NCBI GenBank assembly: GCA_016290145.1
Contig: JAEESX010000003.1
Location: 1-48,620, forward strand
DNA from: Bacillales bacterium
GTDB taxonomy: Bacteria; Bacillota_I; Bacilli_A; RFN20; CAG-826
Length of the DNA stretch: 48,620 nt
Reading direction: 5' to 3'
Under the pieces are notes generated by a model. It was given only the letters and a program-made list of their open reading frames with translations, was not told the DNA's origin and ran no database searches. This document shows, one piece after another, positions 6,954 to 29,547 of the stretch (positions within the stretch are counted from its first letter, which is position 1; each line of letters begins with the position of its first letter). Made by a program: the position numbers and the translations under genes.

Positions 6954-8441
6954 TTAGGAGTTTTGTGATGCTTTTTTGTTGCTAATCACTTTGTCTCCAA
7001 AGTATCCGAGTAGTAATGATTTGAGGTCAATGCCTAATGTCTTATTCAAACCTGCGAAGATTTGATCACCGTGTTGTTGAATCTCACTGACGAGTTTGGC
7101 TTCATTGCCTTCACCATACATTGTAATACCATCGATTTGTGCAAGGGCGGCAGCGATTGGTTCACTGTAGGCTCTGACTGTTTCTGGTAAGACATTGGAT
7201 TCAAGGATGAGTTTGAGTGTGGCGGCATCATTGTAGGATTTCATGGCATCGGCTTTTGCTTTGATGGCATCTGCTTCTGCTTGGCCTTTTGCTTCAATGC
7301 CTTTGGCTTCTGCTAATGCAGCTTCCTTATTGGCATCTGCTTCCACTCTAACGGCGGTTGCGCCTTCTTCACGTGCTTTTCTTTCCGCTTCAGCGGCCAC
7401 TCTCTTAATCTCTGCTTTTCTTTGTGCTTCGATGAGTTCGGCTTCTGCGGCGGCTTTTCTCTTGAATAATTCTGCTTCGGCAGCTTTCTCTGCGGCGTAT
7501 TTTTCCGCATCGGCTTTCTTATTGATTTGAGCAGCTAATTTCTTCTCTGCTAATTCAACTTCTTTGTTGCCGAGTTCGACTTCGCGTTCTCTCTTGGAGA
7601 TTTCCGCATTGGTTGTTGCGACATTGATTTCTTCTTGTCTCTTTTGTTCTTGGATCTTGTATGCTGCATCAGCATCCGCTTTTGCGGTGTCTGTTTGGAT
7701 CTTTAATGATGCTTCTTTTAACGCATACTCAGTATTCTTTTGAACAATAATTGTCTTGGAATTAACTTCGGCTTCGTTGGCATCTTGCGCAGCTTTTGCT
7801 CTTGCGATGCTTACATCTCTTTCAGCGTTTGCTTTGGCAATCGCTGCTTCTTTGCTGATTTGAGAGATGTTATCAATACCGAGGTTTTCAATAACATTAT
7901 TTCTGTCTGAGAAATTTTGAATATTGAAGTTAACTAGTTCGATGCCTAGTTTTCCCATGTCTGGAATGACATTTTCTTGAACCTTTGTGGCAACACCTTT
8001 TCTATCTTGGACGAGTTCGCGGATACCAACGGTACCAACGATTTCTCTCATATTGCCTTCAAGAACTTGTTTGACCTGTTCGATGAGGTCTTCTTGGCTC
8101 ATTCCTAATGTGGCTTCAAACGCTCTTTCAAGGAGTTCTGGATCGCTGCTAATCTTAAGATTTGCGACACCATCCACGTTAATGTTGATAAATTCATGTG
8201 TTGGGATTGGCTCGCGTGTCTTAATGTCAACTTGGAACACTTTGAGTGAAAGACGATCTTTTCTTTGTAAGAATGGGAGTCGCCAACCAGCTTTGCCTCT
8301 TAATATTTTTCTCTTTCCTAATCCAGAGATCATAATTGCTTCGTCTGGACCAGCTTTTGTGTAGGAGCAGAGTAAGAAAACTATTAATAAAACTAACACT
8401 GCTACACCGATAAGAATCCAAATCCATAAATACTTCAACAT
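6954..8441 (-). CDS. Flotillin / SPFH-domain membrane scaffold protein
   Basis: N-terminal TM, SPFH domain (VLEGNMREIVG, NFNIQN), long EA-rich coiled coil. Confidence 0.92.
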   Translation of the reverse strand: MLKYLWIWILIGVAVLVLLIVFLLCSYTKAGPDEAIMISGLGKRKILRGKAGWRLPFLQRKDRLSLKVFQVDIKTREPIPTHEFININVDGVANLKISSDPELLERAFEATLGMSQEDLIEQVKQVLEGNMREIVGTVGIRELVQDRKGVATKVQENVIPDMGKLGIELVNFNIQNFSDRNNVIENLGIDNISQISKEAAIAKANAERDVSIARAKAAQDANEAEVNSKTIIVQKNTEYALKEASLKIQTDTAKADADAAYKIQEQKRQEEINVATTNAEISKREREVELGNKEVELAEKKLAAQINKKADAEKYAAEKAAEAELFKRKAAAEAELIEAQRKAEIKRVAAEAERKAREEGATAVRVEADANKEAALAEAKGIEAKGQAEADAIKAKADAMKSYNDAATLKLILESNVLPETVRAYSEPIAAALAQIDGITMYGEGNEAKLVSEIQQHGDQIFAGLNKTLGIDLKSLLLGYFGDKVISNKKASQNS

Positions 8442-8515
8442 AAACTTTTCCTCCTTCTTTCAAAATTTTTATTTGGTATTTAGGGCCATTTCTTTAACCC
8501 CTTACAGAAATGCTG

Positions 8516-8887
8516 TTACTTTTGTCCCCCTTGAATGAGAATTGTTAATACATTCGCCTCAGGATCCCAGCTTGTTTCGAACTGGACGGGGACTTTAGAT
8601 AAATTGAGATTGAGAGCCTCTCCGATTTGCTTCATTAATGTGGTAGAAGAGATTCTCGCGAAACTTTTGTTTCTCTCTAATTTCAATAGACAACTTTCGT
8701 CTAAATCACCTGATTCCACGACTGCTTTGGTCAGTGGTTGGATAACGATATTGCTGTTATCATCTAAACCCACTTGAACCTTGTATGCATCTTCGAACGG
8801 ATACATAGCGGTCGTATTTAATGTGATGTTATTTGAATAGAGAGATGCAACGCCATTTTTGGCTTTAACATTGAACCATTTGATCAT
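8516..8887 (-). CDS. Hypothetical cytoplasmic protein
   Basis: ORF with AAAGGAG RBS before MIKWFN. Confidence 0.7.
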   Translation of the reverse strand: MIKWFNVKAKNGVASLYSNNITLNTTAMYPFEDAYKVQVGLDDNSNIVIQPLTKAVVESGDLDESCLLKLERNKSFARISSTTLMKQIGEALNLNLSKVPVQFETSWDPEANVLTILIQGGQK

Positions 8888-9195
8888 AGGTTTTTCTCCT
8901 TTCAACATTATTATACATATTTATACATAGGCATACAAATAAAATCGAAAAAATCGTATTTGGCCATATTTTTCTTGGTATAATCACATATTATTTAATC
9001 CTTATTTAAATATATAAAAAGAATGCTTTATTTATAATAGCAGGAAATATTGTAAGAAATTCAATTTTAATGTATTGATGTGTATTTGATGTTAATTGGG
9101 TTGATAATCCACTACTGATTTGCTTCTGAACCCTAGGAAGTTTGTCAAAATTTCAAAAATTATATATAATAGCCGCAACATAAAAGGGGGGCCAT

Positions 9196-10542
9196 ATGAA
9201 AATATCCATTAGGAAAAAGATTTTCTTTGCTATCGGTTTTGCTGCGCTTCCAATTATTATTGTGCAGACTGCTTTTCTTGGTGCTCATTTAAAAGTTAGT
9301 AAGGCCTCTGCTTATGAAACTATTTTAAACGCTAATAATGCTCCAGTACTCACAAATGGGGAAGGTAGCATGACTGATGATAAGAATGTTACTTGGGTAT
9401 ATCACAATGCAAGCGCTTTAAATGATGGCCACATTAGTCTAAGCCACCAAGGATATTTTGGTATTAGCGCCTCCACCGAATGGGGTTATGGCGGTATCAG
9501 TGGCATTACCGCAAACTTTACTGCAGGTGAAAACGGCGAACTTTGGTTGTTATCATCTCTTGATGGTATTGACTGGAGTGAAGTTGGAAAATTAGCAACT
9601 GGAGTTGAAACCATCAATGCGAATAGATGGAACTTCATCCGCTTCTATGCTTATGACACAAGTAATACCTTAGTGAATGTTAATTCCGTCACCATTAACT
9701 ATGAATGTAATGGCGAAGATCCAGATGAAGATACTGACTTAGCTAAGATTGAAAACCTCAGAAAACACGATGCAACAAACGTTAGTGTTGAAACACAAAA
9801 TGTTTCTCCGAGAGGTCATAGCACTAAAGCTTTAAGATTGACTTCCACTAACGGAAGAAGCACAAATAACCACGAAACAATCTTTAATATCGAGCCAACC
9901 ACTTTAGGCAAGATTAAACATATGAAAGTAGAGTTCGACTACTACTATGCTGAAAAGAGAGATCCTAAGAAAGCACCTGGTTATCCAACTTCCGCGATGG
10001 CTAATGCTAATGGAGCTTTCGGAAACGAAAAGACAATCGCTGAAGCAAAAGGTTTCACTTATGAAGATATCGGTGGCGGTTGGTGGCACATGGAATGCTA
10101 CGTTAATGCTTATCTCCAATTATCAGAAAATGCATTAAGTACTTCTGTAACAGGTATTGTTATTAAAGATAACGCTATTTATACCCATGACACCTCAGCG
10201 GGTGAAAAAGTCGGATTCATTATTATCGATAACTTAAGAATGACTTGTTATGGTAATTCCGCGATTATCGTTAACGCCTGGGATAAAGTAACAATCGGTG
10301 GTACTGGCGATCAAAAATACTTCATTAGAGAATGCGTTTGTGGCACCATTAACAGCGTGTCTTATGTAATCTCAGATGAAACATATGGAACACTCTATAT
10401 GGGTCAAAAGAACAACAATGGCAACAATATTTGTTATATCAATCCAATAACGCCAGGTGATGTTGTTGTGACCATCACATATAACCTCGGATACCTACAC
10501 GAAACAGTCGTAGCACATACGGTTACGTTACATGTTCAATAA
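9196..10542 (+). CDS. Secreted beta-rich protein, paralog A of a local family
   Basis: Signal or anchor peptide, AAGGGGG RBS; N-terminal domain shared with 10738 and 21385. Confidence 0.85.
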   Translation: MKISIRKKIFFAIGFAALPIIIVQTAFLGAHLKVSKASAYETILNANNAPVLTNGEGSMTDDKNVTWVYHNASALNDGHISLSHQGYFGISASTEWGYGGISGITANFTAGENGELWLLSSLDGIDWSEVGKLATGVETINANRWNFIRFYAYDTSNTLVNVNSVTINYECNGEDPDEDTDLAKIENLRKHDATNVSVETQNVSPRGHSTKALRLTSTNGRSTNNHETIFNIEPTTLGKIKHMKVEFDYYYAEKRDPKKAPGYPTSAMANANGAFGNEKTIAEAKGFTYEDIGGGWWHMECYVNAYLQLSENALSTSVTGIVIKDNAIYTHDTSAGEKVGFIIIDNLRMTCYGNSAIIVNAWDKVTIGGTGDQKYFIRECVCGTINSVSYVISDETYGTLYMGQKNNNGNNICYINPITPGDVVVTITYNLGYLHETVVAHTVTLHVQ

Positions 10543-10544
10543 CT

Positions 10545-10571
10545 AAAAGCCTCTCAACCGAGAGGTTTTTT
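10545..10571 (+). terminator. Intrinsic terminator
   Basis: GCCTCTC-aacc-GAGAGGT followed by a T run. Confidence 0.8.
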
Positions 10572-10737
10572 AATACATTTTTATATATGATGATTTTGTG
10601 GTGTTTGATTCTTATAGAATCAGACCTATAATAATTTTCAATTTTTTGTCTATCCACTAGTATCTACAACCTACATAATTTGCATAAATTATAAAAAGAG
10701 TTTATAATTCTACACAACTCGCAAAAGAGGGTATTAC

Positions 10738-12027
10738 ATGACATTACTAAAGGGGAAAAAGATAATTGCTATTGGCGCTGCTATGCTTCCAGTAATGGTA
10801 GTAGGTACGCTTTTCTTTACAGCTAATAATCCAATTAGAGCAAGTAAGGCTTCCGCTTTTACTATGTCATTAAATGCCAATAATGCTCCAACACTTTCTA
10901 ATGGTGAAGGAACAATGACTGATGAAAAGAATGTTACTTGGGAATACCACAATGCCAGTGATTTAAATAATGGACACGTGAGTATTGGCCACCAAGGTTA
11001 TTTTGGTATTAGTTCTGCTTCCGATTGGGGCTACACCGCTATCAGTGAATTAACAGTTAACTTCACAGCAGGTACAGATGCTGAATTATGGTTATTAACT
11101 TCAGTGGATGGCAGCGAATGGCACGAAGGAATAATTCTTGAATCCGGTGTTGCTACAAACTGGGCAAATAATTGGAGATACGTCCGTTTCTATTGTTGGG
11201 ATGATAACAATGGCACTATCGATGTTACTTCCGTTAACTTCGGTTATGAATGCCAAGGAATCAGCAGTACAGATGATATCGACTGCGCATTCGCAGACAA
11301 TATTGGAAAGACCAACAATCTAACAGTGGCAAAAGAAACATCTATTATTTCTCCTCGTGGAGACAGCCAAGAAGCTGTTTATCTAACAAGAACTGGTAAT
11401 AGTAGTTATTGTGAATTCTTGCTTAAACAAAAACACATGATTCACGATCTCCACACCTACACAATTGAATTTGATTACTACCACAAGAATAATCAAAACA
11501 AACCAACAGTCCAATTCTTCAACGCTACTGGATCAGTTGGTGGCGCAGGTACTTATGGTGCCCCTTCTAAAACAAATTACAAATTCAGTGATATCGATAG
11601 TGATTGGTGGCATATTGAAGTTCAAATTTCTTCTATGGTTGCCACACATGTTGGTCACTCAGATACTGTTACTGCTAATAAAGAAGTCGACAGAATTAGA
11701 CTTACAACAAGTAACTGTGCTATCGACAATTTGAAAATTGGTGGCATTCCATCAAATAGCAACCATCCATTAGGTATTTATAACAACGGTACATCATTCA
11801 GTAACGGCGGTTACTATTGGATGAAAGTTTCATGGGCGGGCGTGTTACATAGTTGTACATTCTCATTCGATGTTCCAGGTATTGCGGAACAAGAAAATGA
11901 TCCAACTAGTGTCATTCCATTCTATTTACACGGATTAAGTTCAGGTACAGTTGTCGTTACCGCTACTGTGGTGTCCGGATACAATAGAAGTGTCGCAACA
12001 ATCTCAAATACAATTACAGTTAATTAA
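10738..12027 (+). CDS. Secreted beta-rich protein, paralog B
   Basis: Signal peptide ending ASKASA; shared blocks LNANNAP-L-NGEG-MTD, EFDYY, WWH-E, IDNL, KVSWAGVLHSCT. Confidence 0.85.
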   Translation: MTLLKGKKIIAIGAAMLPVMVVGTLFFTANNPIRASKASAFTMSLNANNAPTLSNGEGTMTDEKNVTWEYHNASDLNNGHVSIGHQGYFGISSASDWGYTAISELTVNFTAGTDAELWLLTSVDGSEWHEGIILESGVATNWANNWRYVRFYCWDDNNGTIDVTSVNFGYECQGISSTDDIDCAFADNIGKTNNLTVAKETSIISPRGDSQEAVYLTRTGNSSYCEFLLKQKHMIHDLHTYTIEFDYYHKNNQNKPTVQFFNATGSVGGAGTYGAPSKTNYKFSDIDSDWWHIEVQISSMVATHVGHSDTVTANKEVDRIRLTTSNCAIDNLKIGGIPSNSNHPLGIYNNGTSFSNGGYYWMKVSWAGVLHSCTFSFDVPGIAEQENDPTSVIPFYLHGLSSGTVVVTATVVSGYNRSVATISNTITVN

Positions 12028-12030
12028 AAT

Positions 12031-12060
12031 AAAAAGCCACCATCGCGGTGGCTCTTTTTT
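12031..12060. terminator. Bidirectional intrinsic terminator
   Basis: AGCCACC-atcgc-GGTGGCT flanked by A and T runs. Confidence 0.8.
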
Positions 12061-12071
12061 ATTCATAAATA

Positions 12072-12788
12072 TTAATGAAGAAAGAATATCGAAAAAGCGA
12101 TTACAAACTGCGCTACATAGTAGAACACAGAATAAGTCGCCATATATGTTTTTGATCTTTTACCTGGCTTAAAATACGCACCTGTAAGCATCATATCACT
12201 TGATGCGAAGAATACCGCACCAACGAAGAACATGATAAGTGTACGCATTGCAAATTGATGCAAAATAGCCATACATAATGATGAGAACACCATTGAAGAT
12301 AAACAGTATAAATAGAAGATACCAAATGGTAACATTCCCTTACCAAAATTGATTCCCACTTTTCTAGCAATAAGCATATAAACACCAATGAATACAAGCG
12401 GTAAGACAAATGGCAAGATAATGAATATTGCGTTGCCAGGAAAATAGAATCCCGCAAGAATACCTGCGATATAAAAGACATGACCTAAAGCAAAGGCAAA
12501 CATACCAATTAAGATCCAAGCCTTTTTGGCTTTACCACTGGTGATGTATTTAAATCCTAAGAAGAAGTCACCGAGCATACCAAAGAATAAACCTAACACG
12601 GTAAATAATTTGAAAAGGAAAGATCCTTCTCTATTCAAGCAGAAATCAAGAATGCCTAATGCCACAAAGAACAATGAGGCAATGGTTTTAAAAATGATTG
12701 TTTTAAGAGAGTAGTTAATGACTTTGCTCACAATGAAAACAATAGACATTGCTGAGCCAAGAACTAAAAGAATTATCGATGGTATCAT
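12072..12788 (-). CDS. YhhN / lysoplasmalogenase family membrane protein
   Basis: K-IAS, GL-FG-LGD-FL, GM-AFALGH-FY, GA-FF-SD, Y-Y-AQF motifs. Confidence 0.85.
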   Translation of the reverse strand: MIPSIILLVLGSAMSIVFIVSKVINYSLKTIIFKTIASLFFVALGILDFCLNREGSFLFKLFTVLGLFFGMLGDFFLGFKYITSGKAKKAWILIGMFAFALGHVFYIAGILAGFYFPGNAIFIILPFVLPLVFIGVYMLIARKVGINFGKGMLPFGIFYLYCLSSMVFSSLCMAILHQFAMRTLIMFFVGAVFFASSDMMLTGAYFKPGKRSKTYMATYSVFYYVAQFVIAFSIFFLH

Positions 12789-12937
12789 ACTTTTTTATTA
12801 TAACACTTTAATTTTATCTCGGTGGTTTTGTTTACCATTTTTCAAATTTGTTTCGATTTTATCGAGGTAATTATTGTTATTGTGATAACTACCTTATTGT
12901 ATTAAAATACAAACTATTATTAGGGAGAGATGACGTT

Positions 12938-14743
12938 ATGAAAATCAAATATTCAATATTCCCGCTTATATGTTCGTTATTAGTCGGATGTGTTCCATCT
13001 AATGGTGCTAAATCTGATGACAAAATCAAATTAACATCTAAAGAAATGACCACTTATCACTATACAAAAGACGAGTCCATCAAGACTGAGGTTTTCTATA
13101 GAAATGATATTTTGGTGAACACTCCATACATCTCCTTAAAGACTTATTACAATTTATTAACCAAACATGATTTAACCATTGTTAAGGGTGATGGTCATAA
13201 ATATACAGTCACAAATGCGAATGGCGAAGTCGCCACAATCGATACAGAAAATGACACACTTGCTTGTGCGGATTATCAAAACTTCATCAGCTCCACTATT
13301 TATAGACAAGACAATGTTTCTAATGTCTACTTTGATGGTGCGCCATTCTTAAGAGTGAAAGATGTTACTGCTACGCAAGCACCAACACCTAAAACAATTA
13401 ATTTCAAAAAATATAACATCAACCTTATCGGTAAAGATGATGACATTCTTCTCCCAGTTTCTACCGCATCTAATATGTTCATGGGACCAACCATGATTAC
13501 ATGTTTCTGCACAAATGATTCCATCTACTTTATTGATCCAAACGATCCTCAATGGGAAACAGGTTCTTTGATGTATGACAGCCACTACATCAGTGGTCTT
13601 AAAAAGACATTTAAGAATGGAACAAGAACTGAAGAAGAAGCCTTATTCTCATATGGTGAATTATGTTTCTTGATTGATACCTATTATGGTTTACCAGGTA
13701 GAGAATATCTCCATGATGCATTAAAAGCATCTAGAGATTTAGATAAAGTATTAAAAGAACATAGCGAAGTCACAAGACAAGCGAGAGAATTCTTAATGTC
13801 CACTGACTATGCTGAATACTTAGCGGGTATTAAAATGCTCGCAGCCTTCATTTCTGATGCCGGTCACTCTGTCGCTGATATAGGAACAAGTTACTACTTG
13901 TATCAAGATAGTTCTTTAAATTCAAAAGTTACTAAAGTATTAAACAAAATCAATTTCCAAGATTCAAAATACGAAGCACCAAGTAATATTGACTATAACT
14001 ATATGTATGGTCTTTATGATGCTAGACAAAATGGACCAAGCGTCTCTGCGAATAGTTATGTCCTAAAAGGTGACACATTATTCTATAGAATGGATCAATT
14101 TGATTTCGATATTTATGATTGGAATGATTTTTATAAAAATCCAATGACAAATCAAATGCCAAAAGATGCAGTCGGCAACTTTAAACGAATGCTTGAAAAA
14201 TATAAGAACAATTCATCAGTTAAAAATGTTGTTGTGGATATCAGTATTAACCCAGGTGGTTATGCGGATATCGTGAGTGCATTTATGGGCTTAATGAATG
14301 CTGGTACATATCAACACTCATACGATACAGTTAACGAAAGAGAAATCACTGTTAATTATGAATTCGATAAAAACTTCGATGGTAAGTTCGATGAACACGA
14401 CGCCGAAGTCCACTACGACTTCAACTTTGCAGTCTTATGTTCCGGTTATTCCTTCTCTTGCGGTAACTTATTACCAGCCCAAGCAAAAGAAAGCGGAATT
14501 GCTTTATTAGGTGATAAATCCGGTGGCGGTTCTTGTGCGGTTATCGATGCTTCAAGCGCGGAAGGTTTATACGTTAGATTATCTTGCCAAGATCACTTAA
14601 TGGGTTTAGATGGAACCGATTATGAATTCGGTGTTCCTGTGGATTATAGTTTGGTTACTAAAAACGGAAGTTATTATGACTTTACAAACTTCTACAATAT
14701 CTCATTGATGTCATTAAAGATTAATCGGTTCTATTCTGAATAA
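12938..14743 (+). CDS. S41 family peptidase lipoprotein
   Basis: Lipobox LVGC; DAGHS, VVDISINPGG, SFSCGN (catalytic Ser), LGDKSGGG; start at ATG 12938 after GGGAGAG. Confidence 0.82.
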   Translation: MKIKYSIFPLICSLLVGCVPSNGAKSDDKIKLTSKEMTTYHYTKDESIKTEVFYRNDILVNTPYISLKTYYNLLTKHDLTIVKGDGHKYTVTNANGEVATIDTENDTLACADYQNFISSTIYRQDNVSNVYFDGAPFLRVKDVTATQAPTPKTINFKKYNINLIGKDDDILLPVSTASNMFMGPTMITCFCTNDSIYFIDPNDPQWETGSLMYDSHYISGLKKTFKNGTRTEEEALFSYGELCFLIDTYYGLPGREYLHDALKASRDLDKVLKEHSEVTRQAREFLMSTDYAEYLAGIKMLAAFISDAGHSVADIGTSYYLYQDSSLNSKVTKVLNKINFQDSKYEAPSNIDYNYMYGLYDARQNGPSVSANSYVLKGDTLFYRMDQFDFDIYDWNDFYKNPMTNQMPKDAVGNFKRMLEKYKNNSSVKNVVVDISINPGGYADIVSAFMGLMNAGTYQHSYDTVNEREITVNYEFDKNFDGKFDEHDAEVHYDFNFAVLCSGYSFSCGNLLPAQAKESGIALLGDKSGGGSCAVIDASSAEGLYVRLSCQDHLMGLDGTDYEFGVPVDYSLVTKNGSYYDFTNFYNISLMSLKINRFYSE

Positions 14744-14755
14744 TAAAAAAGCGTC

Positions 14756-15922
14756 TTACTCAGGCGCTTTTTCTTTTAGAAATTGTTGTAAGAATGAATA
14801 ATGTTTTGAGAACGTTTCATTGAAGTACATCTTATTGATATACATCTTTTCATATTCTGCGTTTTCAAATTTAATCATGTATCTTGAAACATCAGAAGAT
14901 GATTTCTCTTTTTTCTTTTCCGTATCCTTAGGATGAATAAACGATGATTGTGCTTCTAATCTAAATCCTGGTTTTGGTTTCTTAGATGTATATAGCATTG
15001 CTTCTACGAAATCAATTTCAGAGATGCTACTTAGAGGAATAAATAACTTTCTGAATTTGTCTAGAGAGGCTTGTTTAAGAAGTTCTAAATATTGTTCGTT
15101 ATTTCCTAACTCCGCTTTCGAGACAAAGAGGAGTTTTTCTTCTACTGACAATTCACTTATCGCAGTCTTTAAATCTTGTGCGTTTTCTTTGAATCGACAT
15201 AAGGCAATTCTTTGATTTGGCTTATCATAGACCATCGCCATTTGGCTAACTGGATATTCGTTTAATAACTTATCGTGGCCACATACTAGAACGAGTTTTC
15301 TTTTGAAAATATCAAGACTACAACCATAGACACTAACGAATTGTTTCATGAAATAGCTTTCATTAATTTGTTCGTACATCTTTTTATCTTCAATATAGTC
15401 TTCACTTTCTCTCGCTTTATTTAATGCTTCGATAATGTATTCATTGATAGCCTTTAATTCTCTTTCGTAAAGAACCTTATCGTTTTTTTCAAATCTAAAC
15501 ATGATGAAGATTTTACGAGTGGCGGATGTTTTCCACTCAGTGTCATTAATGCCGGTGAACGATTGCTCCACTAGTGCATAGGAAAGTAACGAGATGCATA
15601 ACGCTGGAGCGTCACCTTTATACATTCCATCAAATATTTCAAATACACATTGGTCTAAATCAAATAAACTGATGCGTTCGTAAGATATAAATGAACCATT
15701 ATCTTTGCTGACAATAATGCAGTCTTCATAAATGGTAATAGTTTGACTGCTATAAGCTTCGTTTAATTCTCGATAACCAGAGAAGGTGAATTCAAAGATT
15801 TTCTTTTTTGGAGAGCCTTTTTTCACATAAGTACCTTGGTCTTTTCTTTTCGTAATTAAAATTACGATTAAAACAATAACCGTTATTCCAAAGATAGCTA
15901 AACCAATTATGAGTCCGATCAT
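14756..15922 (-). CDS. Hypothetical protein with N-terminal membrane anchor
   Basis: 388-aa ORF, AAGGGG RBS, single N-terminal TM followed by basic residues; no recognisable family. Confidence 0.75.
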   Translation of the reverse strand: MIGLIIGLAIFGITVIVLIVILITKRKDQGTYVKKGSPKKKIFEFTFSGYRELNEAYSSQTITIYEDCIIVSKDNGSFISYERISLFDLDQCVFEIFDGMYKGDAPALCISLLSYALVEQSFTGINDTEWKTSATRKIFIMFRFEKNDKVLYERELKAINEYIIEALNKARESEDYIEDKKMYEQINESYFMKQFVSVYGCSLDIFKRKLVLVCGHDKLLNEYPVSQMAMVYDKPNQRIALCRFKENAQDLKTAISELSVEEKLLFVSKAELGNNEQYLELLKQASLDKFRKLFIPLSSISEIDFVEAMLYTSKKPKPGFRLEAQSSFIHPKDTEKKKEKSSSDVSRYMIKFENAEYEKMYINKMYFNETFSKHYSFLQQFLKEKAPE

Positions 15923-15983
15923 ACTTCCCCTTAAAGATGATTTATTAATCTTGTAATCAATATAACTTAAAAATATAAATAGT

Positions 15984-16012
15984 AAAAGAAAAGCGATCGC
16001 TCACACGATCGC
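15984..16012 (-). terminator. Intrinsic terminator closing the candidate large ncRNA
   Basis: Minus strand GCGAUCG-ugugag-CGAUCGC-UUUUCUUUU. Confidence 0.85.
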
Positions 16013-16163
16013 GTTAACCGGTTGTTTTGTATCAGGGACGAGCCCTGACACATAACACAAGTTGAGTTCCTTCTGACTGGTGGTGCTTCTTGTTGACGAT
16101 ACGTTTTGAATTGATTAGCGTATCGGTGGCCAGTTTCCTCTAGTTATTAGCTTCGAGGCCGTT

Positions 16164-16244
16164 TTCCTTTTCGTCGTGTCCGGTACTGGATTTATCCCGT
16201 CAAACTCTAACGCGGGAACCAGTGATGCAAGCATCAGGGAGGAA
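16164..16244 (-). repeat. ncRNA core copy 3 (most diverged)
   Basis: UUCCUCCC-UGAUGcuugCAUCA-CUGGU-UCCCGC-GUUAGAGUUUGAC-GGGA-UAAAUCCAGU-ACCGGACACGACGAAAAGGAA. Confidence 0.75.
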
Positions 16245-16480
16245 TGTACCGATCGTTACCTTAATTCAGATAACGCTTTGCTAGTGCAACCATTAGCTAC
16301 GTTTTTTTGATTTCGTAGAACTCCTACATCAATTTGGAGGAGCTGGTTGGCTTATCTAGTCTTGAACTCGTTAGTCCTTTTCTTCGTGAAGTTATCTCTT
16401 CGGAAGTTCTTCACTATCGCTACACGTTTGTTGAGTTATGTAACTTAGGCTTGTTCTGCTTTAATTAGAAGCAGTGTTCT

Positions 16481-16556
16481 TACCTCTTCGATCGTGTCAG
16501 GCGGTGGGATTACGCCGTTAAGTTCTAACTCGGCAACCACTACAAGTAGGGAGGTA
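16481..16556 (-). repeat. ncRNA core copy 2
   Basis: UACCUCCC-UACUUGUA-GUGGU-UGCCGA-GUUAGAACUUAAC-GGCG-UAAUCCCAC-CGCCUGACACGAUCGAAGAGGUA. Confidence 0.88.
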
Positions 16557-16780
16557 AACCTTTAACCAATCCTAGGATTGATTAGCCGCTTGCGATCATA
16601 AACCAGAAGATTTAATCCTGGAACCTTACTATCAACGTCGTGTAATGGTTGATCGTCGATTTCGCGGCTGAACTTCATTGCCCCTTTGCAAAGCATCGTT
16701 GATTGGCTTTGCTTATTTCACGTTGCATGTTAACTTAGCGTGAATGGCAGTGTTATAAGGTATTGGTCTTATAACTTTTG

Positions 16781-16853
16781 TCCTCTTCGACTATGTCGGG
16801 CGGTGGGATTACGCTGTTAAGTTCTAACTCAGCGACCACTGTAGCAGGGAGGA
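16781..16853 (-). repeat. ncRNA core copy 1
   Basis: UCCUCCC-UGCUACA-GUGGU-CGCUGA-GUUAGAACUUAAC-AGCG-UAAUCCCAC-CGCCCGACAUAGUCGAAGAGGA. Confidence 0.88.
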
Positions 16854-17035
16854 TCGACCTCGATTATCACCGAAGTGACAATCTTACTAGTGCAATCATT
16901 AATCTATTGCTTTTAAGCTCTAGAACCGTCGTGTTAACTTCGTTTCCTACGTCGATTGTCTTACCTAGATTTGGGTTAGTGAGTAGCTATTGCTACTCAT
17001 TCCCATCAATTTGGTTTCCCAAGTTGATTGGTAAT

Positions 17036-17064
17036 AGTATCTTCTTTTTTATAAATTAGGTCAA
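17036..17064 (-). promoter_or_regulatory. Sigma70-type promoter for the candidate ncRNA
   Basis: TTGACC (17064-17059), 17 nt spacer, GATACT (17041-17036), with an AT-rich upstream region. Confidence 0.7.
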
Positions 17065-17228
17065 GCACTTTTTTAAAAATTTTTTTCAAGAAGTTAAAAA
17101 CCCTCGATGAAATCTCATGTTTTTTTATAAAAAATTTTCTAAAAATATTTTGTTATTAAAATTATTTCTTTGTTTTATTAATTATTTTTTAAATTGTTTA
17201 GTGCATACACGTATATATGTAGGCAAAA

Positions 17229-17255
17229 TAAAAACCGTCACGAGGACGGTCTTTA
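17229..17255 (-). terminator. Intrinsic terminator of the upstream small membrane gene
   Basis: Minus strand ACCGUC-cucgu-GACGGU-UUUUAUUUU. Confidence 0.75.
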
Positions 17256-17271
17256 GTTTAGAACAAACTGA

Positions 17272-17565
17272 TTATTCAGCTTTTTCTTCTTTAGCTTCTG
17301 CGACTGGTTGTTCTTTTTCTTTTTTGCCGAATGCCAATGGGACTGGAGCGCCTTTAATTGCGGCAACAAGATCGAGAACCCAAACAACGATAGAAACAAG
17401 TGGGACCACATTAAGAATTAAATAGATTAAGTGATCCTTGTTTTGGGCTTTTTCTTCGATTACGTTGAATAAACGGTAAAGGAAATAAATGATAGCCACA
17501 AAAATTGCGAAAACAATTCTTAAGCCTTTTCCAAGTCCGTCAACCCACTTCTTATAACCTTCCAT
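17272..17565 (-). CDS. Small 2-TM membrane protein
   Basis: AAAGGA RBS, two hydrophobic segments, charged tail. Confidence 0.75.
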   Translation of the reverse strand: MEGYKKWVDGLGKGLRIVFAIFVAIIYFLYRLFNVIEEKAQNKDHLIYLILNVVPLVSIVVWVLDLVAAIKGAPVPLAFGKKEKEQPVAEAKEEKAE

Positions 17566-17745
17566 GTTTGATTTCCTTTCTTAAGTTATATTTATTATAT
17601 AACTACATGAGTATAAACAAGAAGTATTTTATGTAAACATAGTTTAATATTTTCAAAAATATGTTCCGACATTTTTGCACGATGTAATCAAATTTTTTAG
17701 ATTTTTAAATATGTTTAATTACGGTAAAGAAATATAATAATTTTG

Positions 17746-18993
17746 ATGGGAAAAGATAAGAAGTATCCTCAAATAGATCCTGGTTTACCATACCATCGTA
17801 CTTGGCTTATTTTTTATATTGTTATTTGGATCATTGCTCTAATTAACAAACTAATGAATAAAGCAAAAATCGTTAAGAAGAACAAACTACCAAAACCTCC
17901 ATATATTTTGATATCCACTCACGCATCAATGCTTGATTTCTATATGGCGTTAATGCTCACATTCCCACATAAGGTTTATTGGATATCCACAGTAGAAGAA
18001 TTCATTCCTCGTTTCTTCATCTTTAGAAGAATCGGTGTCTTAGCAAAAAGAAAATTCACTAACGATCCTAAAGGCGCGATGAGATACATGGAAGTTCTTC
18101 AAAAGAAGAAGATTTTGGTCATTTATCCTGAGGCACGTTATTCTTTCATGGGAGAAACAGAGAGAATTGACAAGGGAATAGGCAAAATGGCCAAAATGGC
18201 GAACGTTCCAGTGGTTTTCATAAGAGAACACGGAAACTATTTATATTGCCCTCAATGGAGCGATCACAAGGTACGTAAAATACGTCCAATCGTTGATGAA
18301 GTTGAGACCATTATCACAAGAAACGATTTAGAGGTCATGGACGCGAATGATATTCAACAAAGAATCGAAGAGAACTTTGTGAACTCTGAAGAAGATTGGA
18401 TGAGAAGAAAACACATTCTCATCAAGTATCCTAACCGTGCAGTCGGATTAGAAAGAATCCTATATAAGTGTCCACATTGCGGAACCGAATTTGAAATGAG
18501 TACAGAAACTCACTTCATAAAATGTGACCACTGCGGTGCAAAATATGACTACTTAGAAAATGGTCAGTTACAACGCGTTGATGGAGAAGGTAAATTTACT
18601 TATCCAAGCGAATGGTATAAATGGGAAAAAGCCTGTGTTAAAGAAGAAGTCCTTAACGGCACATATCATTTTGAAGATGATGTTCGTGTGGAAAAGTTAT
18701 TAGGCGCAAAGATTGGCTTTGTTCCTCAAGAAGGCCACTACCACTTAACACACGATATTAATGAAGGATTCGTAGTCAAAGGAACTGATAATGACTTTGA
18801 ATTCAAACGTTCTTCATTACAAAGCTATGCTCTTCATATTGAATACAATTATTTAGATAGAGGTGCATTCCTCGAATTAGCGGATCTTGAAAGCATATAT
18901 TTTATATATCCACTAAACAAGCCAAAAGAATTAACAAAGATTCACTTCGCTGTTGAACATATCTACGATTTCAAAAAATCACAAATCAAATAA
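17746..18993 (+). CDS. Lysophospholipid / 1-acyl-glycerol-3-phosphate acyltransferase with Zn-ribbon extension
   Basis: HASMLD (HX4D), IYPEA, CPHC...CDHC. Confidence 0.85.
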   Translation: MGKDKKYPQIDPGLPYHRTWLIFYIVIWIIALINKLMNKAKIVKKNKLPKPPYILISTHASMLDFYMALMLTFPHKVYWISTVEEFIPRFFIFRRIGVLAKRKFTNDPKGAMRYMEVLQKKKILVIYPEARYSFMGETERIDKGIGKMAKMANVPVVFIREHGNYLYCPQWSDHKVRKIRPIVDEVETIITRNDLEVMDANDIQQRIEENFVNSEEDWMRRKHILIKYPNRAVGLERILYKCPHCGTEFEMSTETHFIKCDHCGAKYDYLENGQLQRVDGEGKFTYPSEWYKWEKACVKEEVLNGTYHFEDDVRVEKLLGAKIGFVPQEGHYHLTHDINEGFVVKGTDNDFEFKRSSLQSYALHIEYNYLDRGAFLELADLESIYFIYPLNKPKELTKIHFAVEHIYDFKKSQIK

Positions 18994-24490: not shown

Positions 24491-25099
24491 TTAGTGAATA
24501 GCTGAAACATTAAATGTAAATGCAAATGTTAAACTGAGTGCAGCAACTTCTGCTTGTAAAGAATTAACTTCTGAAACACTTGTTGGAATTTGAGCGTATT
24601 CAACTGCTGGTAAATTCCAAACATATTCAACATCGGCATCCGCGGCTGTAGATGTAACTGTTTGATCTAAAGCACTTGTCGCGGCGATGTTAACCCATGT
24701 TCCATTAACAGCGGCTGTGGCTGTAGATGCGAAGTGGCCATCGTAAGTTTCGATATCAGCGATATCATTGTCATCTTCTTCAACAGAACCAATGAGTGTT
24801 AAAGATGTGATCTTCTTAGAGACATCGTTTGAGTCTTCAGTGGACCAATAGATGCCATTACCATCTAAAAGACCTTCTTCACCAGCTGGAGCATCGCAAA
24901 TGAGATAAATGCCTGTAATCTCATTGCCTGCGGCGTCTTTAACTTTTAAGTCTTTCGCTTCGATTGCGGCGGTGACTTTTGGTTCTACATCAACGTCCGC
25001 GTCGACTGTTTTTGTAAAACCCCATGCAGCGAAACCGACACCAACAAAAGCGAGGGTAGCTGCACCAGAAATGATTGCTAATTTGTTACGTAATTTCAT
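24491..25099 (-). CDS. SipW-cognate secreted protein (TasA/camelysin-like fibre subunit candidate)
   Basis: Signal ...FVGVGFAAWGFT, acidic Ala/Thr/Val-rich mature part, terminal beta-strand LTFAFTFNV; first gene before sipW. Confidence 0.72.
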   Translation of the reverse strand: MKLRNKLAIISGAATLAFVGVGFAAWGFTKTVDADVDVEPKVTAAIEAKDLKVKDAAGNEITGIYLICDAPAGEEGLLDGNGIYWSTEDSNDVSKKITSLTLIGSVEEDDNDIADIETYDGHFASTATAAVNGTWVNIAATSALDQTVTSTAADADVEYVWNLPAVEYAQIPTSVSEVNSLQAEVAALSLTFAFTFNVSAIH

Positions 25100-25142: not shown

Positions 25143-25232
25143 CCATCATTGAAGCAGCTGGCTGTCCATTATCTTCGGACCCTATAGTTTTGCGACCCCA
25201 AATCTCTTTAGGTGTGCCTTTGTATACGATGA
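25143..25232 (-). promoter_or_regulatory. c-di-GMP-I (GEMM) riboswitch
   Basis: Minus strand AAAGGCACAC-CUAAA-GAGA-UUUGG-GGUCGCAAAACUAUAGGGUCC...GGACAGCCAGCUGC matches the GGCAAAC..GNRA..CGCAAA..CAGCCAGUUGC consensus; lies in the 5' UTR. Confidence 0.88.
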
Positions 25233-29471: not shown

Positions 29472-29547
29472 TGGTGGATCTAATCGGGATCGAACCGACG
29501 ACCTCATCGTTGCGAACGATGCGCTCTCCCAACTGAGCTACAGACCC
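29472..29547 (-). tRNA. tRNA-Ala (CGC)
   Basis: GGGTCTGTAGCTCAGTTGGGAGAGCG-CATCG-TTCGCAA-CGATG-AGGTCGTCGGTTCGATCCCGATTAGATCCACCA; G3:U70 identity pair and encoded CCA. Confidence 0.96.

Follow-up and report, generated by a model that had tools for sequence, protein, structure and literature searches.

The window analysed here, a 48,620-nt stretch of a Bacillales bacterium genome (assembly GCA_016290145.1, contig JAEESX010000003.1), holds an intergenic stretch of 1.35 kb between open reading frames (ORFs) ending at 15922 and 17272, and the question that this locus raises is what RNA it encodes. An earlier interpretation made from the letters of the DNA (the sequence-only reading) had placed three diverged copies of one RNA core here, and comparison with Rfam bears out their positions on the minus strand; the stems and flanking motifs that it had listed are there as well. 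Full-length matches to RF02946 (cow-rumen-1) lie at 16782–16842 (79.6 bits), 16483–16543 (78.7 bits) and 16166–16225 (74.6 bits); each covers model positions 1–61 and exceeds the gathering score of 53.4 bits, with E values of 1.9e-17 to 5.7e-16 for the whole window. The source genome (850 kb to about 1 Mb) contains no further RF02946 match. The three cores are parts of one promoter-to-terminator RNA, not three small RNAs, and the locus is probably a free-standing gene for a ~1.04-kb three-module structured RNA that acts in trans as a multivalent structural platform.

A cmscan search of positions 15800–17400 with E values up to 10 returned eight matches, none of which, beyond those to RF02946, had an E value below 0.5, and no ROOL, GOLLD, OLE, ribozyme or riboswitch family was matched. 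A literature search found no paper naming cow-rumen-1, RF02946, rumen-1 RNA or the rumen-1 motif, and searches on ROOL and GOLLD and on ornate or rumen noncoding RNAs found none describing the RNA of the window. Cow-rumen-1 originates from a survey of 224 motifs (Nucleic Acids Res 2017, PMC5737381), from whose main text, the supplement aside, the name is absent. In the text available, a preprint (10.64898/2026.07.01.735769) deals with other short RNAs, and ROOL and cow-rumen-2 are the only relevant names in the FAST-MaP preprint and the Rfam 15 paper.

Extent of the noncoding RNA

Upstream of the three cores, a sigma-70-like promoter is predicted on the minus strand at 17036–17064, with TTGACC at 17064–17059, a 17-nt spacer and GATACT at 17041–17036 (nine of twelve positions match the consensus); a TTG-containing −35-like box and a TAnnnT-like box align in relatives by eye. 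Transcription would start near 17029, a position 176 nt 5′ of the first core. Among 23 three-module metagenome contigs of at most 1,100 nt, whose origin, RNA-derived or not, cannot be told, 20 begin 150–177 nt 5′ of the first core. At the other end, the predicted intrinsic terminator (15985–16012, minus strand) comprises a stem-loop at 16012–15993 with eight pairs, five of them G-C, followed by UUUUCUUUU, and a T-run occurs within the last 140 nt of all 39 extracted RNAs. The whole noncoding RNA (15985–17029, minus strand, running from ~17029 to ~15990) would measure ~1,040 nt and consists of a leader, three modules, a tail and the terminator.

The promoter-to-terminator stretch is conserved from end to end, beyond the cores, in nine relatives within the family. 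Identity to the window RNA is 60–89% among the 39 unique full-length homologues, and homology with the closest relative ends at ~15977, just beyond the terminator. The ORF list contains no minus-strand ORF of at least 100 amino acids within 15985–17029; the longest stop-free stretch in six frames of the 39 RNAs has a median of 88 amino acids (53–119), a figure that is uninformative taken alone.

Rumen RNA-library contigs from four studies cover 15997–17011, and a single contig of 977 nt, from a run of 7.9 million letters, spans 16016–16990. The depths in these data are contig word depths summed over relatives and cannot rank expression, and contig cover of the flanks at 15500–15996 and 17062–17600 was absent or nearly so in these four runs, which counts as no finding. 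Some joints skip ~300 nt (16507 to 16805–16813) and connect conserved cores of adjacent modules at 90% likeness; these may come from relatives or from repeat collapse. RF02946 is a 61-nt piece of a much larger RNA, and the Rfam model needs extension.

Covariation of the core pseudoknot and of the long-range helices

Covariance model R1, built from 33 module-2 cores, matched 134 cores in 42 sources, and 119 distinct rows were analysed. The core helices are paired in 91.4% of the cells of these rows, compared with 80.1 ± 0.4% in shuffled alignments (none of 500 as high) and 36–54% when partners were slid by 1–3 columns, and the covariation score is 0.347 against 0.150 in shuffles. The structural signal of the cores exceeds that of shuffled controls.

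The Rfam model depicts cow-rumen-1 as 61 nt with one hairpin that has an internal loop and a 21-nt unpaired tail. The window cores match it over its full length above the gathering score, and its helices P1 and P2 are confirmed by covariation. The outer 4-bp P1 is paired in 100% of cells, with double changes in three of four pairs (columns 53–92: GC 78, CG 33; 54–91: UA 101, CG 14); the inner 5-bp P2 is paired in 92.9%, with double changes in all five (59–79: GC 83, UA 27; 61–77: UA 96, CG 19). The window RNA differs from the model in pairing the tail, in pairing the loop through a helix that we call T1, and in repeating a ~300-nt module within a ~1-kb RNA. Pairing of the tail occurs with sequence 5′ of the Rfam model: NCCN pairs with NGGN (P0) and GAGG with CCUC (Pcl), which yields a pseudoknot with the strand order P0-5′, Pcl-5′, P0-3′, Pcl-3′ around the side hairpin (Ps), P1 and P2. 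P0 varies widely (7–97: CG 69, GC 35, AU 7; 10–94: CG 57, UA 42, UG 19), and in an alignment that was not fitted to structure a P0 pair of module 2 reads CG 80, AU 5, GC 5, GU 4 and UA 3 among 103 RNAs. The side hairpin varies likewise (24–51: GC 84, CG 17, AU 7). The inner stem, next stem and side hairpin that the sequence-only reading had drawn correspond to P2, P1 and Ps, and they covary both within the window and across the 119 cores from 42 sources. Its closing stem, Pcl, stands in part: the two outer pairs show UA, AU, CG and GC types, whereas the CCUC/GAGG centre is nearly constant. Each module type has its own P0 sequence, GGGC/GCCC in module 1, CGGC/GCCG in module 2 and CGGU/ACCG in module 3, which fits pairing within modules; such distinct sequences would discourage mispairing between modules.

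Covariation extends over the whole RNA. In the 39 full RNAs (MAFFT alignment not fitted to structure, RNAalifold), 213 local pairs are 93.2% canonical and 137 of them show double changes; covarying cells number 1,152, compared with 354 ± 19 and a maximum of 412 in 200 shuffles, and slid-partner controls are 31–42% paired. The long-range helices proposed by RNAalifold fared differently, with double changes in two of 16 pairs against 1.17 in shuffles, and were rejected. These unsupported pairs include those of the module 1 tail with a module 3 P0 strand and of the module 1 GAGG with the module 2 CCUC. Also among these 16 pairs is a helix closing the 5′ and 3′ ends (16975–16970 with 16061–16056), in which many sequences are mismatched by eye.

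Two other long-range helices, T1 and K, were detected by a blind scan for covarying antiparallel runs and tested on 64 further unique RNAs from metagenome contigs. T1 is a 6-bp helix between the core loop GARYUU and the sequence AARYUY ~158 nt downstream, and its pairs in the window are 16824–16819/16675–16670, 16525–16520/16369–16364 and 16207–16202/16069–16064. Across the 39 RNAs it covaries in module 1 (224–381: AU 21, GC 18; 225–380: UA 20, CG 18, UG 1), module 2 (532–701: GC 29, AU 8, UA 1; 533–700: CG 23, UA 14) and module 3 (866–1003: UA 25, CG 13), and the R and Y positions of module 1 read AU 31/GC 31 and CG 33/UA 26 in the 64 further RNAs. An alignment-free search for a T1 partner 90–230 nt downstream (median 158) succeeded for 352 of 376 cores, compared with 276 of 1,128 when R and Y were swapped; in five-module loci a partner was found for 35 of 42 cores. 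The motif GUUAGARYUURAC of the sequence-only reading contains these positions: its Y covaries with a base 7 nt upstream (helix P2b), and its R and Y covary with the partner ~158 nt downstream. In the window, the gap between the T1 3′ strand and the first junction helix, Pa, of the following module is 0 nt from module 1 to 2 and 4 nt from module 2 to 3. Because the T1 3′ strand adjoins the following module, the modules are joined by base pairing besides the backbone; judged from covariation, consecutive modules are chained head to tail by the 6-bp T1 helix.

The K helix (5–7 bp) pairs the loop of a junction hairpin, Pc, with that of the hairpin 3′ of the core, at 16939–16933/16734–16728 in module 1 and 16334–16329/16114–16109 in module 3. 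The 39 RNAs covary at K in module 1 (108–316: AU 23, CG 11; 109–315: UA 19, CG 15, UG 4) and in module 3 (735–959: UA 22, CG 13, UG 4), and the covariation in these two modules held in the 64 further RNAs.

When 117 units, three from each of the 39 RNAs, are aligned jointly, homology extends over most of each ~300-nt unit, beyond the 61-nt Rfam core. The homologous unit is ~300 nt rather than the ~75 nt of the sequence-only reading. The three modules of the window are 259–315 nt long and 45–52% identical overall, rising to 62–73% in the cores. Each module runs from a junction domain (helices Pa, Pb, Pc and Pd) through a spacer hairpin (Pe) and the core to the kissing-loop hairpin and the T1 3′ strand. 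The UAAUGRUUGCA-like motif previously noticed before each core is the 3′ strand of Pb and Pa, both of which covary; Pb reads, for example, CAAUC/GAUUG, CGAUC/GAUCG or CAACC/GGUUG. The hairpin of unrelated sequence that was seen after this motif is Pe, which also covaries and is free in sequence, often with a UUCG or GNRA cap. The helices vary between paralogous modules and covary across genomes, and the unpaired core nucleotides CCCU, GUUAGA, UAA, GACA and CGAA (~25 nt) are kept constant across modules, a combination that upholds the earlier proposal of a domain triplication followed by selection on the fold.

On the minus strand the RNA begins with a leader (16980–17027) of two hairpins, 17027–17019/17014–17006 and 16999–16992/16987–16980, with double changes in seven of seven and five of eight pairs, and 83% and 99% paired. 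The module 1 junction domain (16887–16968), homologous to those of modules 2 and 3, contains Pa (16968–16965/16890–16887), Pb (16960–16953/16898–16892), Pc (16952–16949/16929–16926), whose loop at 16939–16933 is the K 5′ strand, and Pd (16924–16919/16908–16903); double changes occur in six of seven Pb pairs and in all six Pd pairs. Its core pseudoknot (16777–16865), which includes the Rfam match 16782–16842 and scores 93.1 bits to model R1, is formed by P0 (16859–16856/16801–16798), Pcl (16853–16849/16785–16781), followed by the side hairpin, P1 (16839–16836/16806–16803) and P2 (16834–16830/16816–16812), with the T1 5′ strand GAACUU at 16824–16819. Hairpin Pg (16717–16744; stem 16744–16739/16722–16717) presents the loop 16734–16728 that kisses the Pc loop 16939–16933, and the T1 3′ strand AAGUUC (16670–16675), pairing with 16824–16819, abuts Pa of module 2.

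Module 2 is built likewise. Its junction domain (16584–16669) comprises Pa (16669–16664/16589–16584), Pb (16657–16650/16598–16592), the Pc loop GUUGA (16636–16632) and Pd (16621–16616/16608–16603), and a spacer hairpin (16582–16576/16571–16565) lies 5′ of its core. The core pseudoknot (16478–16567) includes the Rfam match 16483–16543, scores 93.8 bits to R1 and carries the T1 5′ strand at 16525–16520. The linker that follows (16364–16444) holds Pg (16444–16438/16425–16419) with the loop UCAAC (16434–16430), a variable hairpin (16414–16409/16391–16386) and the T1 3′ strand GAGUUC (16369–16364).

In module 3, the junction domain (16276–16359) has Pa as CUAG/CUAG, Pb (16351–16344/16292–16286), Pc (16342–16337/16326–16321), with the K 5′ strand in its loop at 16334–16329, and Pd (16320–16318/16314–16312). 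A spacer hairpin (16275–16268/16261–16254) precedes the core pseudoknot (16161–16257), which includes the Rfam match 16166–16225, scores 52.1 bits to R1, and has a longer side hairpin (16236–16231/16228–16223) and the T1 5′ strand GAGUUU at 16207–16202. A conserved structured tail of 170 nt separates this last core from the terminator. The part mapped here (16064–16158) includes a hairpin (16158–16151/16143–16137), a helix (16134–16130/16080–16076) enclosing an inner hairpin (16125–16119/16103–16097), whose loop at 16114–16109 kisses 16334–16329, and the T1 3′ strand GAACUC (16069–16064), the partner of the module 3 core loop.

Module copy number and distribution

Three modules is the prevailing form. 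Among 36 untruncated clusters on genome contigs, 33 have three modules, two have five, and one has three plus a degenerate extra unit; the nine genome-contig clusters that show only one or two modules are all truncated at a locus end. The 115 metagenome clusters include 77 with three modules (38 with full flanks) and 13 with five (three with full flanks), and six metagenome contigs of 1,577–1,684 nt look like whole five-module RNAs. The order of the unit types u1, u2 and u3 persists across genera. In 13 of 15 five-module RNAs it reads u1-u2-u1-u2-u3, three of these having identical scores and being perhaps one sequence; the remaining two comprise one u1-u2-u3-u3-u3 and one with a tied second unit. 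Nineteen carrier genomes have RF02946-type hits: fourteen have three, two have five, one has nine in three loci, and two have single hits.

The two single-module RNAs (L010 in genome G023 and L195 in genome G088; L and G numbers are our handles for loci and genomes) are, by eye, self-contained, ~230–330 nt long and each closed by its own terminator. P0, Pcl, P1, P2 and T1 are all retained in them, T1 as the compensated variant GGACUU/GAGUCC, and one also retains the junction domain and K. Versions with other copy numbers, for which the sequence-only reading had proposed to search, do exist: five-module forms recur, and two genomes have a single module. Its covalent pseudo-trimer is retained insofar as the copies lie in one molecule, but the trimer is not obligate, given the one- and five-module forms. 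A ~40-nt hairpin, GUGAUUCGCAGGUGAGAUCCAUUGUYGGUCUGGUGAAUCA, followed by a U-run, precedes both single-module genes (L010 ~1274–1313 and L195 ~887–930, both in the reverse complement), and from this shared sequence L010 and L195 may be one conserved, perhaps mobile, unit.

Other copy numbers were considered and rejected. All seven two-unit genome clusters are cut by the locus end, and the five seemingly complete two-module metagenome forms have a short side of only 179–244 nt; as this equals one inter-core distance, they are explicable as breaks at the repeat. Four-module clusters are cut at one end, and the extra match of L069 is a degenerate upstream unit. The six-unit clusters L150, L151 and L175 are two three-module genes in tandem, ~500 nt apart. 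A contig of 2,072 nt (L100) with seven or more modules was not counted: its 618-nt repeat is identical at 618 of 618 positions and may be a very recent duplication or an assembly loop.

The degenerate core of L069 (4144–4230, minus strand; 49.6 bits, 34% G+C) lies ~400 nt upstream of a normal three-module RNA and resembles a module in decay or what remains of a second gene. L078, L098 and L118 each carry two complete three-module genes on one contig, 1.3–3 kb apart. RNA genes also lie at contig ends, at both ends of contig 2 of genome G002 (inverted) and in contigs 18 and 55 of genome G001, an arrangement that points to multi-copy RNA genes as places where these assemblies break.

Metagenome-assembled genomes are the source of all 48 genome-contig loci; they are labelled 'Bacilli bacterium', 'uncultured Bacillales bacterium' or 'uncultured Erysipelotrichaceae bacterium', and the named sources are the foregut of cattle, buffalo, goat, yak, water deer and reindeer. 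Every locus is from one family of rumen Bacilli with genomes mostly of 0.9–1.8 Mb. Within a sample of this family the motif is present in 19 of 151 genomes and nine of 48 genera. None of 16 genomes from other families of the order has the RNA, none of 150 other genomes in a class-wide sample, ten of them of the same family, matches model R1, and viral contigs gave no match to the core pattern.

Possible roles of the RNA

The window RNA resembles ROOL, GOLLD and OLE in being large and highly structured, in having stand-alone genes in Bacillota, in its covarying helices and pseudoknots, and in lacking a known function. According to the available text of PMC5737381, ROOL was first found in rumen data and averages 581 nt, and GOLLD and ROOL often occur near tRNAs and in prophages. 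The window RNA is longer, at ~1,040 nt against that average, has internal tandem modules in one-, three- and five-module isoforms, and matches none of the models of these three classes; unlike those of ROOL and GOLLD, its loci are without a tRNA gene (86 loci, 702 kb) or a viral contig match. Like tandem riboswitch aptamers, it unites in a single transcript several folded, paralogous domains with shared conserved unpaired nucleotides. The tandem glycine riboswitch, for instance, has two ~100-nt domains in a 5′ leader, followed by an expression platform. The window RNA differs in having three or five ~300-nt modules, its own terminator and no fixed downstream gene. We know of no natural RNA built as a covalent module chain of this kind.

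How might such a chain work? We infer that the window RNA acts in trans as a structural RNA. As every module keeps the same ~25 unpaired core nucleotides, each would offer the same pocket, and the chain would form a multivalent platform with one, three or five equivalent sites. The platform might engage a protein, a small ligand or other copies of the same RNA.

Several observations weigh against this account. The fitting of the core alignment (A4) favours the helices to which it was fitted, P0, Ps, P1 and P2, but not Pcl, T1 or K, which had no part in the fit, and the two outer pairs of Pcl do not form in 43 and 56 of the 119 rows. All rows come from one bacterial family, and because the sequences share kinship the shuffle significance is overstated. 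The strands of K in module 2 (16636–16632/16434–16430) hardly vary, although they are complementary in 100–103 of 103 RNAs. The 5′ strand of T1 is at once the 3′ strand of P2b, the 3-bp helix (aGU/GCu) of the Rfam model. P2b is paired in 88.5% of the 119 cores and changes from G-C to A-U in modules 1 and 2; in module 3, with C-U as the first pair in 88 of 103 RNAs, it cannot form, whereas T1 covaries in all three modules. The two helices may form in alternation, or the kinship of the sequences may account for one of them. The RNA-library data are contigs with neither strand nor ends given, and DNA carry-over is possible. Six of 12 genomes of the window's genus, some of them 93–99% complete, lack the RNA, and its absence from half of these genomes makes it accessory, either dispensable or mobile. 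Finally, no neighbour gene family is common to all 36 loci, so that the binding platform is a matter of inference.

Under a different account, of RNA-only higher-order assembly, the module would be a self-associating protomer and the three- and five-module chains fused pseudo-oligomers forming rings, cages or filaments. Single-module genes do coexist with three- and five-module ones, no protein partner gene was found among the neighbours, and the proximity of T1 to the following Pa (0 and 4 nt) would allow stacking and a fixed angle between modules; ROOL, GOLLD and OLE form RNA-only multimers, as reported in the available text of a preprint (bioRxiv 10.1101/2024.12.08.627333). No intermolecular contact can be inferred from sequence, however, the closing and cross-module helices lack covariation (2/16 pairs), and the module-specific P0 fits only pairing within modules, so we regard this account, the main rival, as rather unlikely. 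That the RNA is an array of self-cleaving or self-processing ribozymes, cut into ~300-nt monomers, appears quite improbable. Pseudoknotted cores with ~25 invariant unpaired nucleotides are typical of catalytic RNAs, and the modules are regularly spaced; yet the 977-nt RNA-library contig is nearly the whole RNA (a minority of uncut molecules could yield such contigs), the modules are not interchangeable, as the u1/u2/u3 order is kept across genera and the leader and tail are unique, and no Rfam ribozyme family was matched.

Two further accounts would tie the RNA to an adjacent gene. The order of promoter, structured RNA, terminator and, 70 nt past the terminator, a same-strand ORF (14756–15922, 388 amino acids) is what would be expected of a cis-regulatory leader in which three tandem aptamers control the downstream gene through the terminator, and in 26 of 36 loci the RNA and its nearest downstream ORF share a strand. 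In the other 10 of 36 the two are on opposite strands, no neighbour family is shared by more than nine of 36 loci, the 388-amino-acid gene is present in two of 12 genomes of the genus, the second of which has it 8 kb away from the RNA, and the conserved 170-nt tail precedes the terminator with no anti-terminator pairing seen. Tandem cis-acting aptamers are unlikely because of the terminator with its T-run, the opposite-strand ORFs and the variable neighbours, and such a three-aptamer leader is in our judgement highly improbable. ToxI, the RNA of type III toxin-antitoxin systems, consists of tandem pseudoknot-forming repeats of a few tens of nucleotides followed by a terminator. The window RNA likewise has tandem pseudoknotted repeats, a terminator and a same-strand gene, and by this analogy it might be a repeat-RNA antitoxin or defence RNA, for which a patchy, accessory and multi-copy distribution would be typical, as of defence or mobile elements. 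Its units, however, are ~300 nt long, diverged (45–52% identical) and of ordered types, rather than short near-identical repeats. No toxin-like gene lies nearby, PADLOC matched none of four neighbour proteins, the only domains found there are peptidase S41, acyltransferase and M6-like, viral contigs gave no match, and the downstream gene is not conserved, being absent from 10 of 12 genomes of the genus. We give an antitoxin or defence role very little credence.

Within the account of an RNA-only assembly, a possible though tentative view of the architecture is that of a covalent pseudo-oligomer, an RNA counterpart of solenoid proteins. An ancestral module of ~230–330 nt, persisting as the single-module genes of two genomes, would have given rise to chains of the form (u1-u2)n-u3, with n = 1 or 2, whose three-dimensional path would be fixed by T1 and which may close or multimerise into cage- or filament-like particles. 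If so, the five-module pseudo-oligomer would reach ~1.65 kb and the three-module form ~1.04 kb, both above the ROOL average given in the available survey text. The window RNA would rank among the largest structured bacterial RNAs of unknown function, and as a class it is a new addition to the few giant bacterial RNAs whose function is not known. The occurrence of the same fold as a single module and as covalent chains is a natural experiment bearing on fusion versus self-association in RNA architecture. The helix map gives exact constructs for structural work, and the RNA may mark uncultured small-genome rumen Bacilli in rumen transcript data.

The neighbourhood of the gene varies in its gene families from locus to locus. 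The window has the RNA, a 97-amino-acid gene and an acyltransferase gene in common with the closest relative. Neither the 97- nor the 388-amino-acid neighbour has an informative family match, and the 388-amino-acid protein has no Pfam, NCBIfam or PADLOC match; the domains named above are the only ones that Pfam and NCBIfam returned for neighbour proteins, among which no defence, phage or toxin signature was found. Contig 3 of genome G001 joins homologues of window positions 7499–8961 and 17758–18993 (the acyltransferase gene) and lacks what lies between, so that the 8.8-kb stretch 8961–17758, with the RNA gene, an S41-peptidase-like gene and several unannotated ORFs, is variable within the genus. 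ARAGORN found no tRNA gene in the 86 loci of at least 4 kb (702,641 bases), and its control on the window was positive: the sole tRNA gene there is a tRNA-Ala (anticodon CGC) at 29472–29547 on the minus strand. Elsewhere in the window, a c-di-GMP-I riboswitch aptamer (RF01051) lies at 25150–25228 on the minus strand, at 47.3 bits (cut-off 35), immediately upstream of the minus-strand ORF 24491–25099 (202 amino acids).

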